DNA of 4,615 bases, taken from IMG/VR virus record IMGVR_UViG_2548876963_000005, one strand, 5' to 3'. Positions 247 to 4,615 of the stretch are shown piece after piece. A program made the translations under genes and the position numbers. The stretch's first letter is position 1. Each line of letters begins with the position of its first letter. Source of the stretch: a virus. Lineage: Duplodnaviria > Heunggongvirae > Uroviricota > Caudoviricetes. The notes under the pieces are model-generated. The model saw nothing but the letters and a program-made list of their open reading frames with translations. It was not told the DNA's origin and made no database searches.

Positions 247-3200
247 TTATAGCTCGGATAGCTTTAACTTTGCTTCAAGCTCCTCAACCCTTTTTGTCAG
301 TTTCTGAATATGATGAATGAGTGGAACAACCAGACGGTCATACATCACGCCTTCTGCAACCATCCCATTATCAGACGCTATACCTGGATCATCCTCGTCT
401 GTAAGAGGACGCCAGTGAACATATTGCGGTGCTATCTCTCCGACTTCTTCTGCAATAAGGCCATAATGTCCCCAGTCCTTTCTGTCCCTTTCACAAGTCG
501 AGCGATACCATACAGGACGAAGTTTCAACAACTCGTCCGCGTACCTGTTCTCTAAAGACTCGATATCCGTCTTGTATCGACGGGATGAAGTCGAACGAAA
601 TACCATGTTGTAACCAGCAACCGGACTTACGAACATGTTAGGACTATCGGTTGTTGTCTGAATGTCGAATATTTGCAAATAATAACAACTTAACGTCTGG
701 AAGTTTGCATCTAACGAGCCGCCTTCGAGTTTTGATGACGTGATAAAACTTTTATTGAGTTGGTTAATCTCCGATATGCTGTAAGCGCCAATTTCAAGCG
801 GTGTGGGCAGTTTCTTTGTGTTCAGTGCACGACGCCATCCGGGGGAATAAGCTGTGCCATTAAACACATAGATAAATTCCGCATTAGTGAGTGCGCCAGA
901 GACACTTGTCGTCGTGGCTGTTGTTATTCGAATGGTGTAATAAGTTGCACTGTGGCTGAATACTTCTATCACCGCCCCCGCCAGTGGAATAATGCCGCAG
1001 CCTGTTTCACTGTCTGGTATGGAGGCGCTGTCAGCGTATGCCCAGGCACAGCGTGCCACCCATGCTTTTGTATTGAAGGCACCATTATTCTGCAATATCG
1101 TCACTAACTGAGCCGTTGTTATTGATGCACCATTACTCCCTGTGCCTAACCAGCCAGTTGGAGATGCCGGGCAACCAATATTTGCTGGTGACAGAGAAAT
1201 ATTTGCCGAACCGTCAAACGACACGCCATTAATAGTACGCGCTGTCTGCAACTTCGTGGCAGTAGCTGCATTGCCTGTAGTGCTCTGGTTACCAGTCGTA
1301 TTAACACCAGGCAAGTTAATATTCGCAGTACCATCAAAGCTCACACCGCCGATAGTTCTTGCCGTCTGTAGTTTTGTAGCTGTTGCCGCATTACCCGTAG
1401 TGTTCTGGTTACCTGTCGTATTTACTCCCGGAATGCTGTCTTTTTTGGTATAAATCTGAGTCCAGTCTTCCTCAAAGCCATAACCATCACGCGAAGAACG
1501 GTAAAACAGACCGCCATTCTTGTAATGAGCGCGAATCTGGAGAGTCTGGCAACTCCCCACACCGGTATAAAAGTTTGCAACAAGACAGGAGTCGCCAGAA
1601 CGCGTGACATTATATGCACCGGATTCAGCATTCCACGGAACGGCTCCATCCGAATCCGCATAAGCCCCCGTCGCACGTAGGGCAAATGCACCAATATTTT
1701 CCGGCGTGAGATTAATATCCGCCGAGCCATCAAACTTAACACCGTTAATTTTTTTGGCTGCCGCAAGTTTCGTCGCGGTATCGGCGTTCCCCTTCAGTGC
1801 CCCGGTGATCCCACCAGTAACAGACAACGGACCTGAAACTGTTCCTCCGGTTGTTGGCAGTGCTCCAATATCTGATGGTGTAGGTTTCTGATGTGAGCTA
1901 TACATCGTATAAACAACACCATCGGTAACGCCGGAAGGCTTACTCGCTGAATAGGCTGGCGATGTATAAACAGAAACTGACGCATTTGCAGTACAATCCC
2001 AATGGATATTTACACTCGTCGCATAATTGCCAGTCTCAACGTAAATATCATATGTATCGCCGGATGTGTTGATCCAGGCGAAATTCGTTAATCCGACGGC
2101 TGTACGCTTCCACAAAGCTCCGGTAATCCCTTTGGGGTTTCCATTGCCTGCTCGTAGAACCAGTTCTGAAATACCTGCCTGCTGTGGGGAGCCGACGTTG
2201 TATCCGGCACCACCAATCAATGTGATGTAAACGATGGAACTCGCTTGTGGCATGGTAACCGTAGCCAGTTTGAACCACCCAGCCCCGCCAGAGAAAGACA
2301 TCGTTACTGAATTTAAAGTACCAATATCTTTCGGCGTTAATGTGATATCCCCAGTCAGTGCTTTCCCGTTAATTTTTCGGTCAGATGGCACCCTGCTGTT
2401 CGCATTGTCATTGACTGCTTTAACTGCCTTTGGCGTTGCGGCCAGCGATTCACTGGTGCTGTCGACAGCACTGCTAAGTTTCACAACACCTTTAGTGGTA
2501 AGGCTTGCGTCTTCCATCGCAACCGCACCGGCAATCTCTTCAGCACGATCAGCAGCAGCTTCCGCACGGGTCGCAGCGGATTCAGCAGCAGTTTTGCTCT
2601 GAGATGCAGCCGTCGCACTGCCTGCCGCCTCTGTTGCTTTCGTGGATGCCGTTGAAGCACTACCCTTCGCAGCTGACGCCTGCCTGATCGCCTCATCTTT
2701 TGAAGCGGACGCCGAGGTGGCTGATGCAGACGCAGAACTTGCAGATTCAGCAGCTGCCGCCTTAGAGGAAGCGGCATTGTCTTCTGAAGTCTTTGCATTT
2801 GTTTCAGAGGATTTTGCTGCCGATGCTGAATTTTTAGCAGCTGTAGCCTGATTCGTCGCCTCAGTCGCTTTTGCGGTAGCTGTTGTCGCTGATGACGACG
2901 CGCTTTCCGCCGATTTCCCGGCGGCGGTGGCACTGGCTGAGGCCTGCCCGGCACTTGTTGACGCGGCACTGGCAGACGACGCAGCCGCTGTTTTTGAGTC
3001 TGCTGCTGCGGAGGCACTCTGTTCCGCTGCCGTTTCAGAAGCCCTGGCGTTCGTCTCGGACGTTTTTGCCGCCTTCGCGGAATTTCCTGCCGCCGTAGCC
3101 GAGGAAGCTGCACTACTGGCGCTCGAGGCTGCGCTCGTTTCTGATGATTTTGCCGCCTCTTTTGAAGCCGCCGCATCCCGGGCTGAGGTGGCAGCGTCTG

Positions 3201-3888
3201 ACGCTTTCGTGGTCGCGGTGGATGCTGAGGTGGCTGCGGATTGTTGTGACGCTGCCGCGTTCGTTTCTGACGTTTTCGCGGCACTGGCACTGGTGGCCGC
3301 CGCACTTTTTGAGGACTCTGCAGCGGCAGCACTTTTTGAGGCTTCAGTGGCCTTTGTTGATGCTGTTCCTGCGCTGGAAGATGCTGACTGAGCAGATGAT
3401 GCAGCCTGTCCGGCTGACGTGCTGGCTGCGCGTGCTGAGTCTGCAGCATCAGTCGCATGGGTTTCCGCCTCACTGGCAGATGTGCTGGCATCGCTGGCTG
3501 ACTTCTTCGCGGCTTCCGCATTCTGTGCCACTGCGGACGCGTTACGCGCCACCTCTTCCACCATCAGTTCAAAACGGCGCAGTGCCTCCGGACGGGCATC
3601 ATCCTCCGTCATTGCGCCGAGAAAATCATTCAGCGTACCCGGCTTTGAATCCTCATACACTGTGATGGTCCCGGCATGCGAAGGCGGAAAACCTTCAACC
3701 AGCAGGGTGACGCTGTACTGGCCATACTCAACGTCCATACTATAACGCCCGGCTTCATCCGGATTTTCTGAGGCCACCGTGTTCACCACCACCGTGGTGC
3801 TGTTGCGTCTGGCCTTTAGCTGAATGGTGCAGTTTTGTACCGGTTTGCCTGCTCCATCTTTCAGTACACCTGAAATCTTAACCGTCAT
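247..3888 (-). CDS. stf: Side tail fibre protein, mosaic: lambda-Stf-like N-terminal half, tail-fibre repeat shaft, divergent distal region, C-terminal intramolecular chaperone (self-cleaving) domain
   Basis: Single open frame of 1215 codons in the supplied ORF track (247..3894 from a GTG). An in-frame ATG at 3886-3888 gives MTVKISGVLKDG..., which matches the lambda Stf N-terminus as I recall it (MAVKISGVLKDG...), and is preceded by GGGGTGA 5 nt upstream. Stop is TAA at 247-249. Protein aa 1-~470 resemble lambda/Rac-type Stf including the long Ala/Ser/Thr-rich segment. aa ~745-815 (VPWNAESGAYNVTRSGDS...GLFYRSSRDGYGFEE) also resemble lambda Stf. The C-terminus carries an S-x-R-x-K-x-D-I type motif and a coiled-coil-like tail. 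Confidence 0.9.
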   Translation of the reverse strand: MTVKISGVLKDGAGKPVQNCTIQLKARRNSTTVVVNTVASENPDEAGRYSMDVEYGQYSVTLLVEGFPPSHAGTITVYEDSKPGTLNDFLGAMTEDDARPEALRRFELMVEEVARNASAVAQNAEAAKKSASDASTSASEAETHATDAADSARAASTSAGQAASSAQSASSSAGTASTKATEASKSAAAAESSKSAAATSASAAKTSETNAAASQQSAATSASTATTKASDAATSARDAAASKEAAKSSETSAASSASSAASSATAAGNSAKAAKTSETNARASETAAEQSASAAADSKTAAASSASAASTSAGQASASATAAGKSAESASSSATTATAKATEATNQATAAKNSASAAKSSETNAKTSEDNAASSKAAAAESASSASASATSASASKDEAIRQASAAKGSASTASTKATEAAGSATAASQSKTAAESAATRAEAAADRAEEIAGAVAMEDASLTTKGVVKLSSAVDSTSESLAATPKAVKAVNDNANSRVPSDRKINGKALTGDITLTPKDIGTLNSVTMSFSGGAGWFKLATVTMPQASSIVYITLIGGAGYNVGSPQQAGISELVLRAGNGNPKGITGALWKRTAVGLTNFAWINTSGDTYDIYVETGNYATSVNIHWDCTANASVSVYTSPAYSASKPSGVTDGVVYTMYSSHQKPTPSDIGALPTTGGTVSGPLSVTGGITGALKGNADTATKLAAAKKINGVKFDGSADINLTPENIGAFALRATGAYADSDGAVPWNAESGAYNVTRSGDSCLVANFYTGVGSCQTLQIRAHYKNGGLFYRSSRDGYGFEEDWTQIYTKKDSIPGVNTTGNQNTTGNAATATKLQTARTIGGVSFDGTANINLPGVNTTGNQSTTGNAATATKLQTARTINGVSFDGSANISLSPANIGCPASPTGWLGTGSNGASITTAQLVTILQNNGAFNTKAWVARCAWAYADSASIPDSETGCGIIPLAGAVIEVFSHSATYYTIRITTATTTSVSGALTNAEFIYVFNGTAYSPGWRRALNTKKLPTPLEIGAYSISEINQLNKSFITSSKLEGGSLDANFQTLSCYYLQIFDIQTTTDSPNMFVSPVAGYNMVFRSTSSRRYKTDIESLENRYADELLKLRPVWYRSTCERDRKDWGHYGLIAEEVGEIAPQYVHWRPLTDEDDPGIASDNGMVAEGVMYDRLVVPLIHHIQKLTKRVEELEAKLKLSEL
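250..588 (-). other. C-terminal intramolecular chaperone / autoproteolytic domain of Stf (endosialidase-chaperone, peptidase S74-like), aa ~1103-1215
   Basis: Motif S1103-S-R-R-Y-K-T-D-I1111 fits the S-(D)-x-R-x-K-x-(N/D)-I signature at the self-cleavage site of endosialidase and T5 L-shaped tail fibre C-terminal chaperone domains. It is followed by ~100 aa ending in a heptad-like EELEAKLKLSEL tail. Recognised from memory of the family, not searched. Confidence 0.65.
1192..1431 (-). repeat. Two tandem 120-bp (40-aa) direct repeats inside stf (aa 822-861 and 862-901)
   Basis: Protein units PGVNTTGNQNTTGNAATATKLQTARTIGGVSFDGTANINL and PGVNTTGNQSTTGNAATATKLQTARTINGVSFDGSANISL. By my manual codon-by-codon count they share 36/40 aa but only about 85/120 nt. 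Confidence 0.85.
1693..1755 (-). repeat. Conserved tail-fibre linker motif, copy 2 (aa 714-735, KKINGVKFDGSADINLTPENIG)
   Basis: Same motif as copy 1, about 620 bp away. DNA blocks accaatat(t/c)tt(c/t)cggcgt and ccgttaattttt are nearly identical between the copies. Confidence 0.7.
2311..2382 (-). repeat. Conserved tail-fibre linker motif, copy 1 (aa 505-528, DRKINGKALTGDITLTPKDIGTLN)
   Basis: K-I-N-G-x-x-(L/F)-x-G-x-x-D-I-x-L-T-P-x-D/N-I-G pattern typical of the phage tail fibre repeat shared among lambda Stf, P2 H, Mu S and T4 gp37-type fibres. Shares short near-identical DNA blocks with copy 2 (for example cccgttaatttt versus accgttaatttt). Confidence 0.7.
2515..3549 (-). repeat. Low-complexity Ala/Ser/Thr-rich coding segment of stf (aa ~116-460)
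   Basis: About 345 aa composed almost entirely of A, S, T with scattered K, E, Q, N, D, G. The DNA is GC-rich and internally repetitive (gc[atcg] codon runs), which opens long spurious ORFs in other frames on both strands. Confidence 0.85.
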
Positions 3889-3891
3889 ATT

Positions 3892-3899
3892 CACCCCAC
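3892..3899 (-). promoter_or_regulatory. Shine-Dalgarno region for stf (GTGGGGTG, 5-nt spacer to the ATG at 3888)
   Basis: Minus strand GTGGGGTGAATATG. The purine-rich GGGG(T)G sits directly 3' of the terminator U-tract. Confidence 0.55.
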
Positions 3900-3926
3900 A
3901 AAAAAGCCCGCCTGAACCGGCGGGCT
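3898..3926 (-). terminator. Rho-independent terminator downstream of lom, immediately upstream of the stf ribosome-binding site
   Basis: Minus strand reads AGCCCGCC-GGTTCA-GGCGGGCT followed by TTTTTGT: a perfect 8-bp GC-rich stem (3905-3912 pairing with 3919-3926), a 6-nt loop and a U-tract. It starts 22 nt after the lom TGA stop. Confidence 0.7.
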
Positions 3927-3947: not shown

Positions 3948-4547
3948 TCAGAATTTATAACCGACACCTACGATGAAACTGTCAGTGCGCCAGTCGCCAC
4001 TGCCGGAACCTTCATAAGCGACATCAATGGCCACCGATTCGGTCGGGTTAAACTGCACGCCAGCTCCCCACGCCATAGAGGTGTTACTGTGGCGAGCGTC
4101 ATCACTTCCGGTCAGCACATCGTGCGTTTTCCCCTTGCTGTCGGTCACCTGCAGATAATCCCCGGAGAAGGTCGACACACGGCTGTAAGCCACACCCGCC
4201 ATCGCATACGCACTGAACCATTCATTCACGCGTACAGACGGACCCGCCATCACGCTGAACCAGCGGTTACGCACGGAATCTTCATGCCAGCGGGTATCGC
4301 TGTAACGGGTCAGCTGGCGATTCTTGTCTCCTGCATAGCTGAATGACGTCACCAGCCCCAGCGTGTCCGTAAATTCATAACGGTATTTCACGTTAATGCC
4401 CTTCAGGTCATCGCTGCCTGGCATATCAGTATGGGTCTGAAGATACCCGGCGCTTAGTGTGGACTGATGCTCTGCTGCGCTCGCTGGCGTACCAGCGGCA
4501 ACCAGCCAGACTACTGCGGACAGAATAACAGCACATAATTTACGCAT
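3948..4547 (-). CDS. lom: Lom, Ail/Lom/OmpX-family outer-membrane beta-barrel protein (lambda lom homologue)
   Basis: 199-aa ORF. N-terminus MRKLCAVILSAVVWLVAAGTPASA-AEHQ is a typical Sec signal peptide with an AxA cleavage site. The rest (STLSAGY...GINVKYRYEFTDTLG...SFSYAGDKNRQLTRYSDTRWHEDSVRNRWFSVMAGPSVRVNEWFSAYAMAGVAYSR...VGVGYKF) matches lambda Lom nearly residue for residue as I recall it, and ends in the C-terminal aromatic residue typical of OMP beta-barrels. Position immediately upstream of stf matches the lambda gene order J-lom-stf. SD GAGAGG lies 5 nt upstream of the ATG. Confidence 0.93.
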   Translation of the reverse strand: MRKLCAVILSAVVWLVAAGTPASAAEHQSTLSAGYLQTHTDMPGSDDLKGINVKYRYEFTDTLGLVTSFSYAGDKNRQLTRYSDTRWHEDSVRNRWFSVMAGPSVRVNEWFSAYAMAGVAYSRVSTFSGDYLQVTDSKGKTHDVLTGSDDARHSNTSMAWGAGVQFNPTESVAIDVAYEGSGSGDWRTDSFIVGVGYKF

Positions 4548-4568: not shown

Positions 4569-4595
4569 AATAAAAAAGGCGCCATTTCTGGCGCC
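4569..4595 (-). terminator. Rho-independent terminator upstream of lom (end of the preceding transcription unit)
   Basis: Minus strand reads GGCGCCA-GAAA-TGGCGCC followed by TTTTTTATT: a 7-bp stem (4578-4584 pairing with 4589-4595), a GAAA tetraloop and a U-tract. The lom SD and ATG follow about 20 nt later. Confidence 0.6.
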
Positions 4596-4615
4596 CGTAT
4601 ATGGGTTATAAAATT

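Follow-up and report, generated by a model that had tools for sequence, protein, structure and literature searches.

In phage T5 and in the K1F endosialidase, an upstream aspartate (Asp1239) and an arginine of the neighbouring chain (Arg1250; both T5 numbers) sense correct folding of the trimer. The Thr1263|Ser1264 bond and the Ser1264/Lys1269 dyad of the T5 fibre pb1 have been defined by experiment, and the S1264A fibre, which is uncleaved, loses receptor competition (PMC4690869). Lambda carries its genes in the order J-lom-stf-tfa, and Stf chimeras of lambda with K1F and with K5 have been built before and work (PMC11338833). Here, we analysed a 4,615-nt stretch of caudovirus DNA (the window), for which a preliminary description had proposed that a self-cleaving chaperone domain at the end of stf takes the place of tfa. 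The best explanation for the observations as a whole is probably a Stf with a built-in self-cleaving chaperone, assembled without a separate tfa, a reading that draws on sequence comparison, structural models and analogy with known fibres.

The features of the window are given below. The ORF tool begins the stf reading frame at the GTG at 3894 (247–3894, minus strand, 1215 codons), and residue numbers throughout are counted from there; the true start is likely the ATG at 3886–3888, where MTVKISG pairs with MAVKISG of lambda Stf.

1–246, no strand: non-coding stretch after stf, 25% GC, with an A-tract at 1–34; no ORF, no tfa.
247–249, minus strand: stf stop codon TAA (ORF translation).
250–3888, minus strand: stf, side tail fibre, 1213 aa counted from the ATG at 3888 (ORF list and translation).
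250–588, minus strand: intramolecular chaperone (Peptidase S74/ICA) domain, aa 1103–1215, with predicted release (Pfam, PDB profile, AF2 and Foldseek).
253–330, minus strand: C-terminal 26-residue helix, aa 1189–1214, putative trimeric coiled coil (AF2 monomer model).
571–573, minus strand: K1108, predicted catalytic lysine, serine + 5 (conservation; equivalent of T5 Lys1269).
586–591, minus strand: predicted scissile bond T1102|S1103 (S1103 conservation; register with T5 pb1).
589–810, minus strand: tip at the distal end of the predicted mature fibre, aa 1029–1102 (homology to stand-alone tip+S74 proteins from aa ~1038).
811–1689, minus strand: Mu S/P1 S-like fibre domains and GNAATATKL...FDG repeats, aa 736–1028 (PDB 8ju3 match; BLASTP to pAVS0578-B).
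2530–3552, minus strand: Ala/Ser/Thr-rich shaft, aa ~115–455 (composition, 73% A+S+T).
3487–3888, minus strand: lambda-type N-terminal attachment domain, aa 3–136 (PF08400, E 2e-72).
3948–4547, minus strand: lom, coding for an Ail/Lom outer-membrane protein and lying next to stf on its upstream side, as in lambda (PF06316, E 9.5e-122).

The window, with lom and stf in the lambda order, covers the lom-stf end of a lambda-like prophage; in near-identical genomes this prophage occupies att-lambda. The region beyond the window was taken from E. coli A25, a 99.7% identical genome, whose locus holds J, tail assembly genes (with a complete J-I-K-L tail gene set), an exact attR core and ybhB-bio. Stf itself is a mosaic of a lambda-type N-terminus, an Ala/Ser-rich shaft, Mu/P1 S-like domains and a cassette of tip and chaperone. 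Pfam places PF08400 at its N-terminus and PF13884 at its C-terminus and detects no enzymatic domain in it, its PHROG matches are tail-fibre families, and four E. coli genomes carry a 99–100% identical gene under the annotation 'prophage tail fiber N-terminal domain-containing protein'. The lambda-type attachment named in the preliminary description is borne out by PF08400 and by residues 3–96, which differ from chain 9e7m_Ta of the lambda tail fibre at 8 of 94 positions (86 identical, ~91%; E 2.4e-50); PF08400 and the J-lom-stf order together class Stf, by sequence, as a lambda-type side tail fibre. In the shaft, Tandem Repeats Finder detected no genuine array, and pairwise alignment shows aa 188–292 (nt 3019–3333) to be missing from the strain A25 protein, a length difference of 105 residues. 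Residues 736–856 and 887–1028 match the Mu S/S' domains (PDB 8ju3, E 6.7e-56).

The coordinates 250–606, to which the chaperone had been assigned, are the final 119 codons of the stf ORF (aa 1097–1215), and a profile-HMM search upholds an S74/endosialidase chaperone domain there. PF13884 (Peptidase_S74; IPR030392) matches aa 1103–1159 with 33.8 bits (E 4e-8) in the whole protein and scores 38.1 bits (E 1.9e-9) with the 119-aa C-terminal piece alone, against a gathering cut-off of 22 bits, a sequence match far beyond chance. The 113-residue domain occupies the extreme C-terminus of a 1215-residue tail fibre ORF, its product being taken as a trimer by homology to other fibres. When a profile from 48 homologous sequences was searched against the PDB, the best match was 8hqz_d of a T5-like L-shaped fibre (E 1.5e-10); 6f45_A, the S16 long-fibre distal subunit (E 6e-9), 7dc3, the MyRF ICA domain (E 6e-4), and 8jov were also matched, and every match was a protein bearing an intramolecular chaperone (IMC), with no others. 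Single-sequence phmmer with the last 197 aa gave a marginal match only, again to 8hqz_d (E 0.016). The AF2 monomer model has a block-mean pLDDT of about 86–96 over the chaperone domain, which it folds in the order H-E-E-H-E-E-H(26 aa), and Foldseek with this model returned 7dc3 (E 3.6e-5), 3gw6 (endoNF IMC) and 3gud (GA-1 IMC) at the top and nothing significant beyond them. On profile and model evidence alike, the Stf C-terminus belongs to the S74/intramolecular-chaperone family. The tip region reaches a pLDDT of only 45–70, as is expected when an intertwined trimer is modelled as a monomer; the tip (aa 1029–1102) is expected to be the part that the chaperone folds, the two forming one cassette of 187 residues.

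In the proposed assembly route, the lambda-type N-terminus would dock Stf onto the tail, while three chaperone domains would trimerise via their C-terminal helices, by analogy with K1F endosialidase and T5 pb1, and template the folding of the intertwined tip. After a correct trimer is reached, the Ser1103-Lys1108 dyad would cut T1102|S1103, freeing three 13.25-kDa fragments and leaving mature chains of 1100 residues (110.5 kDa) with the tip exposed; by the same analogy, cleavage would depend on trimerisation. The cleavage signature read earlier from the translation lies exactly at aa 1103–1111 (SSRRYKTDI, nt 562–588). Set against T5 TSDARLKNDV, the Stf segment TSSRRYKTDI brings T1102, S1103 and K1108 onto Thr1263, Ser1264 and Lys1269, although the hhalign alignment of the 48-sequence profile with T5 pb1 1197–1396 is weak (probability 2.4%, 28 columns) and gives a register reading only, not homology. 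K1108 and Y1107 are invariant in the 48 homologues, which range down to 26% identity; conservation is at least 90% at S1103, at S1104 and in the YGLIAEEV motif. S1103 and S1104 had both been named as residues to mutate; the serine-to-lysine spacing points to S1103, and not S1104, as the catalytic serine. The predicted released fragment of 113 aa has a computed mass of 13.25 kDa, which corrects the earlier figure of ~12 kDa.

Homology suggests that Stf would undergo autoproteolysis at T1102|S1103. It is very improbable that the chaperone is a folding cap that goes uncleaved, or poorly cleaved, and stays on the mature fibre: the Thr-Ser...Lys triad sits in the exact T5 register, RST|SSRRYK is kept in 87 of the best 120 matching clusters, and a retained cap would probably disable the tip, given the loss of receptor competition by uncleaved T5 S1264A (PMC4690869). 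What speaks for such a cap is that the Arg/Asp folding sensor was not found: no residue stands at the spacing of T5 Arg1250/Asp1239, and the tip is poorly predicted in the AF2 monomer model. R1100 (−3) is the only nearby arginine and is conserved within the close subfamily.

With the chaperone built into the fibre, a separate tfa would not be needed at the locus. There is no ORF of at least 20 aa in positions 1–246 of the window, and tblastn with lambda Tfa, which detects tfa remnants in control loci, gave no match in the window or in the 9 kb downstream in A25. Just beyond the poly(A) tract, the one place where the preliminary description had allowed for a tfa, A25 has instead a nitroreductase-DUF1653 fusion gene, the next gene after stf, 106 nt past the window edge. 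This gene and an alpha/beta hydrolase gene are the only ones between stf and the attR core 2.96 kb downstream, and the earlier statement that no tfa-like ORF follows stf extends in A25 as far as attR. The DUF1653 gene was considered as a disguised assembly protein and ruled out, its product being fused to a nitroreductase and matching no PHROG related to tails. A terminator and promoter scan of bases 1–400 gave nothing meaningful.

That the chaperone domain stands in place of tfa, as had been proposed, agrees with the fibre of the P1-like plasmid pAVS0578-B, in which 215 of 233 residues (92%; BLASTP) are identical to Stf aa 809–1041. The near-identity stops at ...GWRRALNTKK (aa ~1028), and past this joint the plasmid fibre ends in another C-terminus, with a Caudo_TAP (PF02413) tfa gene next to it. 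Because the plasmid has another tip and its own tfa beyond the joint, tip and chaperone were exchanged as one cassette, and for such a swap 'replaces tfa' is a fair wording. Intact tfa is absent too from three further Stf loci with an S74 end (L010, L011 and L012/13), and the lambdoid phage PhiR55_1, whose isolation host was E. coli C, has an S74 tip gene and no tfa. The anticorrelation between S74 and tfa is not clean: fibres that have no S74 can also do without tfa, as at L014, where no Caudo_TAP gene lies downstream of a related Stf of this kind.

The S74 domain might fold and process only the last ~75 residues, while the whole fibre needs Tfa in trans, for example from another prophage, so that the IMC supplements tfa. 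The internal Mu S/P1 S-like domains belong to Tfa-dependent fibres in their home phages, a Caudo_TAP gene accompanies the 92%-identical P1-like fibre, and E. coli genomes often hold several stf/tfa loci (e.g. in tandem, as in SE11 and L012). We nevertheless consider a supply in trans unlikely. In the P1-like fibre, Tfa goes with the divergent C-terminus, which Stf lacks, identity ending at the joint; several S74-ended Stf prophage loci and PhiR55_1 have no tfa; and Tfa proteins act on the C-terminal tip of their fibre, as North et al. (2019) reportedly found. From the sequence comparisons, we infer that Stf is independent of Tfa.

A non-functional recombinant in a decaying prophage, in which the missing tfa reflects a deletion of the fibre-distal region, would also account for the locus. 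Stf is known only from prophages, its shaft differs by 105 residues between strains, and the related loci of SE11 and NCTC86 contain a broken stf with tfa remnants. Decay is hardly credible for an ORF that stays open without a break across 3.6 kb, whose C-terminal 540 residues are 100% identical between the window and strain A25 (pairwise alignment), and whose A25 locus retains the complete J-I-K-L set and the exact attR core; in addition, no tfa fragment is detectable with lambda Tfa in tblastn, and the architecture recurs in other genomes.

The count behind this recurrence comes from a full-length search, since the 187-aa cassette query had returned short proteins only: PF08400 and PF13884 occur together in 66 of the best 120 matching protein clusters (E. 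coli, E. albertii). The fused chaperone on a lambda-type fibre had been called a notable combination, a judgement that does not survive this frequency or the engineered lambda-K1F/K5 chimeras (PMC11338833); being common in E. coli prophages, the arrangement is ordinary. Of 5426 E. coli genomes, about 800 have a related S74 tip gene, in free-standing form, at an stf locus. Drexlerviridae also have the free-standing tip+S74 form, annotated 'putative lateral tail fiber chaperone'. There is a small chance that the tip+S74 cassette is a portable unit working either fused, as in Stf, or as a free-standing ~230-aa protein that may chaperone, or dock onto, a separately encoded Stf in trans. If the free form does serve such an Stf in trans, the fused gene would mark an evolutionary switch between intermolecular and intramolecular chaperoning within the same fibre family, which has not been described previously. 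Among the papers searched, none was devoted to a lambdoid Stf that carries an intramolecular chaperone.

The value of these observations is mostly practical. The understanding of fibre assembly is unchanged, since the shuffling of S74 chaperone domains between numerous classes of fibre was known before; what is gained is a functional annotation for a fibre with a generic RefSeq label, with a predicted processing site (T1102|S1103) and fragment size (13.25 kDa). The natural joint at aa ~1028, where a self-chaperoning tip has taken the place of a tfa-dependent one, is useful for helper-free chimeric lambda side fibres.

Compared with known systems, Stf resembles T5 pb1 (PDB 4UW7/4UW8; Garcia-Doval et al., 2015; PMC4690869) as a long lateral siphovirus fibre with an S74 domain at its end, with Thr|Ser...Lys in the same register (TSDARLK in T5, TSSRRYK in Stf) and with the same predicted order of secondary structure up to a final C-terminal helix of about 25 residues. 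It differs in its low sequence identity (the single-sequence search being barely significant, E 0.016), in a pre-chaperone tip of ~74 residues where pb1 has a ~290-residue bullet domain, in a shorter predicted beta-hairpin 'tentacle', and in an N-terminal attachment of lambda type rather than T5 type. The K1F endosialidase (endoNF, PDB 3GW6; Schwarzer 2007; Schulz 2010) shares the Pfam family 'Chaperone of endosialidase' and the Ser-Lys chemistry (Foldseek probability 0.98), but it is an enzymatic podovirus tailspike, whereas no enzymatic domain was detected in Stf by Pfam.

With lambda Stf and Tfa, the locus shares ~91% identity over the N-terminal 94 residues and J-lom-stf at att-lambda, and the internal Stf domains are homologous to S of the Mu S+U and P1 S+U pairs. 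Unlike lambda, Mu and P1, the Stf locus is without a tfa/U gene (PF02413) and has the tip+S74 cassette as its C-terminal tip; the S-type tip of Mu and P1 is absent, near-identity to the P1-like plasmid fibre ending at aa ~1028. Closer to the cassette are the stand-alone tip+S74 proteins of lambdoid prophages and Drexlerviridae (225–234 aa), including KarlJaspers Bas06 gp35 ('putative lateral tail fiber chaperone') and those of PhiR55_1 and NCTC86, which are 52–62% identical over aa ~1038–1205, RSTSSxRYK included, and occupy the same place, directly after the stf or lateral fibre gene. They are separate genes with a coiled-coil-like N-terminus of ~49 residues, flanked by conserved 93-aa and 97-aa genes that are both absent from the window locus, whereas in Stf the cassette is fused in frame. 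The lambda-K1F and lambda-K5 STF chimeras likewise join a lambda Stf N-terminus to a fibre or spike that naturally ends in S74, and lambda particles carrying them work (Brodel et al., 2024; PMC11338833); their constructs presumably include the S74 chaperone, a domain on which the paper is silent. Those chimeras are artificial, and the stf of the window is their natural counterpart with a non-enzymatic tip.

All genes in the window lie on the minus strand, and its layout is as follows:

3948-4547, minus: lom (PF06316, E 9.5e-122)
247-3894, minus: stf open reading frame, 1215 codons, with the lambda Stf N-terminal domain PF08400 at its start (E 2e-72)
1-246: non-coding DNA 3' of the stf frame, 246 bases, 25% GC, with an A-tract at the far end

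Stf and the lambda tail-fibre chain 9e7m_Ta disagree at 8 of the 94 positions that span Stf residues 3-96, and because of this match the true stf start is probably the ATG at 3886-3888, preceded by GGGGTG; residue numbers count from the GTG, as in the preliminary description. Minus-strand GC-rich hairpins followed by T6 lie at 3900-3925, 12 nt 5' of the stf ATG (seen by eye, missed by the scanner), and at 4577-4596, just 5' of lom (scanner-detected). Both are terminator-like and fall within the late operon; read-through would need anti-terminated transcription. Three further ORFs overlap the Ala-rich part of stf:

2481-3521, minus, other frame: 346 aa
2927-3391, plus: 154 aa
3144-3665, plus: 173 aa

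Their translations are low-complexity and Pro/Arg/Gln- or Ala-rich, and they look more like by-products of GC-rich repetitive coding sequence than like genes.

The preliminary description had located a cleavage signature at aa 1103-1111, within a region (250-606) that equals aa 1097-1215; the position is correct, and the sequence there is SSRRYKTDI. The Peptidase S74 profile it had called for, PF13884 ('Chaperone of endosialidase'), covers aa 1103-1159 with 33.8 bits, above its gathering score of 22, and the isolated 119-residue C-terminal piece scores 38.1 bits (E 1.9e-9). Across 48 aligned homologues, with identity down to 26%, Y1107, K1108, G1145 and A1148 are invariant, while S1103, S1104, R1106 and the YGLIAEEV block are at least 90% conserved. 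A profile from this alignment matches only S74-domain proteins in the PDB, namely a T5-like L-shaped fibre (8hqz_d, 1.5e-10), the phage S16 long-fibre distal subunit (6f45_A, 6e-9), the MyRF ICA domain (7dc3, 6e-4) and 8jov. The AlphaFold2 model built from the alignment has block-mean pLDDT of ~86-96 across the domain and ends in a 26-residue helix; its high-probability Foldseek matches are MyRF ICA (E 3.6e-5), the K1F endosialidase chaperone 3gw6 and the GA-1 chaperone 3gud, with no other significant match. The S74 domain at the Stf C-terminus is real, far beyond chance, and its family membership is demonstrated.

In T5 pb1, the scissile bond is Thr1263-Ser1264, Lys1269 activates Ser1264 and S1264A blocks processing (PMC4690869). 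Comparison of T5 N-T-S-D-A-R-L-K-N-D-V with S-T-S-S-R-R-Y-K-T-D-I places T1102, S1103 and K1108 on T5 Thr1263, Ser1264 and Lys1269, in an alignment that is statistically weak and serves for register only. Because S1103 falls on Ser1264, it, and not S1104, should be the nucleophile. Cleavage there would release S1103-L1215 (113 aa, computed 13.25 kDa) and leave a mature chain M3-T1102 (1100 aa, computed 110.5 kDa). The Arg and Asp that couple cleavage to correct trimer folding in T5 and K1F were not located in Stf; the monomer model of its tip is poor. That the domain is instead an uncleaved cap seems very improbable to us. By analogy with K1F and T5, three C-terminal domains would trimerise, template the intertwined tip and then use the Ser-Lys dyad to cleave themselves off, which would leave the tip exposed; from the same analogy we infer that cleavage occurs, that it depends on trimerisation and that no Tfa is required, and we regard the account as a whole as likely.

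The preliminary description had seen no tfa-like ORF beyond stf and had stated that a tfa just past the poly(A) tract would contradict its reading. None is present in the window or the locus of E. coli strain A25: window bases 1-246 hold no ORF of at least 20 aa, and lambda Tfa gives no tblastn match in either, while the control loci SE11 and NCTC86 yield tfa remnants. The window region occurs in four complete E. coli genomes (identity 99.4-100%). In A25 the prophage sits at att-lambda, with the 15-base att core 2.96 kb past the stf stop and then ybhB and the bio operon; between stf and the core lie just two genes, one encoding a nitroreductase-DUF1653 fusion, the other an alpha/beta hydrolase. 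This cargo cassette, divided from stf by the 25%-GC stretch (L001 8895-9246 in A25), occupies the lambda b-region position as far as attR. The window A-tract has 34 bases (93% A), and in A25 more C residues break it up, so its length and sequence vary between strains. Intact tfa is also missing from three further S74-ended Stf loci. A locus with a related Stf without S74 (L014) has no tfa downstream either, and tfa absence is not unique to S74 fibres. Related long fibres of 1341-1344 aa at L014 2735-6769 and in phage Cyrano (L009 1752-5777) carry only a Gp34_trimer domain, with neither an S74 domain nor a downstream Caudo_TAP gene.

The fibre itself is composite. Two Stf segments match the phage Mu S/S' structure 8ju3 (E 6.7e-56) in swapped order: aa 736-856 (window 1327-1689) resemble the distal part of the Mu fibre (residues 324-440), and aa 887-1028 (811-1236) resemble residues 186-320, thus placing a Mu-type distal domain mid-fibre. 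This match favours the main rival, in which these internal domains, of Mu S / P1 S type, would still need Tfa supplied in trans; we consider it unlikely. A natural exchange is seen in comparison with the P1-like phage-plasmid pAVS0578-B, whose fibre is 92% identical to Stf residues 809-1041 (215/233), with near-perfect identity to ...GWRRA(L/Y)NTK at aa ~1028. Past this joint the pAVS0578-B fibre has a different C-terminus of ~235 residues, with a gene for tail fibre assembly (PF02413, E 3.8e-29) after it, whereas Stf has a 74-residue tip and the S74 domain, without tfa. This comparison gives the best evidence for tip and chaperone being exchanged as a unit, and for the built-in chaperone occupying the place of a tfa-dependent tip. 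The earlier proposal of a C-terminal chaperone domain in place of tfa is supported as to the identity of the domain and the reason for the missing tfa. We give very little weight to stf being a dead mosaic gene. The A25 orthologue lacks a 105-residue Ala/Ser/Thr-rich shaft block (window 3019-3333, aa 188-292) and is otherwise near-identical; the remaining 20 differences all precede aa 675, with no change in the C-terminal 540 residues, and fibre length therefore varies while the tip is fixed.

Lambda-type attachment with S74 maturation had been called a notable combination, a view that the survey does not support: in the full-length search, PF08400 and PF13884 occur together in 66 of the 120 best clusters at 90% identity. 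These 66, all of E. coli or E. albertii origin, span 863-1671 aa and bear the RefSeq name 'prophage tail fiber N-terminal domain-containing protein'; RST|SSRRYK is present in 87 of the 120. PHROG 3299 (1385 positions) already covers the fused architecture, 804 of 5426 complete E. coli genomes hold DNA ~72% identical to the chaperone-coding part, and SSU5-like phage-plasmids have long fibres ending in an S74 domain. Published work describes S74 domains as common across many fibre classes (PMC12143355; PMC11990801; PMC12090712), and lambda Stf chimeras with K1F and K5 fibres function on lambda particles (PMC11338833). The literature searched contained no paper describing a natural lambda-type Stf with an S74 domain, and the gene is therefore an uncharacterised example of a known, not very unusual kind.

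Tandem side-fibre loci, which look like successive insertions of fibre cassettes, have an S74-ended stf, a 24-36-residue tfa remnant, a second complete stf (590 aa) and a DUF4376 gene; the first SE11 stf is annotated as broken (N-terminal pseudogene plus 518-aa ORF). P0006, a 189-aa predicted protein with Ail/Lom and Peptidase_S74 Pfam matches, is 94% identical to the window chaperone domain and may be a deletion product joining lom directly to the stf end. Elsewhere tip and S74 domain form a free-standing gene. The loci of both kinds are:

L002 3159-8796: tandem locus, SE11
L012/L013 4001-9638: tandem locus
L006 5664-6963: free-standing, NCTC86
L004 5593-6855: free-standing, PhiR55_1
L005 4558-5504: free-standing, KarlJaspers

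The free-standing genes encode 225-234 aa with a coiled-coil-like N-terminus, annotated in BASEL as 'putative lateral tail fiber chaperone'. Before each lies phrog_1361, a conserved gene of 93 aa, and in the lambdoid loci of NCTC86 and PhiR55_1 a 97-aa apparently membrane protein (phrog_1443) follows; the window has no counterpart of either. Of the genomes with ~72%-identical DNA, one locus was examined, that of NCTC86, where this DNA is a separate 234-aa gene after stf and the 93-aa gene, and the lambdoid phage PhiR55_1 and the Drexlerviridae phage KarlJaspers share this three-gene layout.
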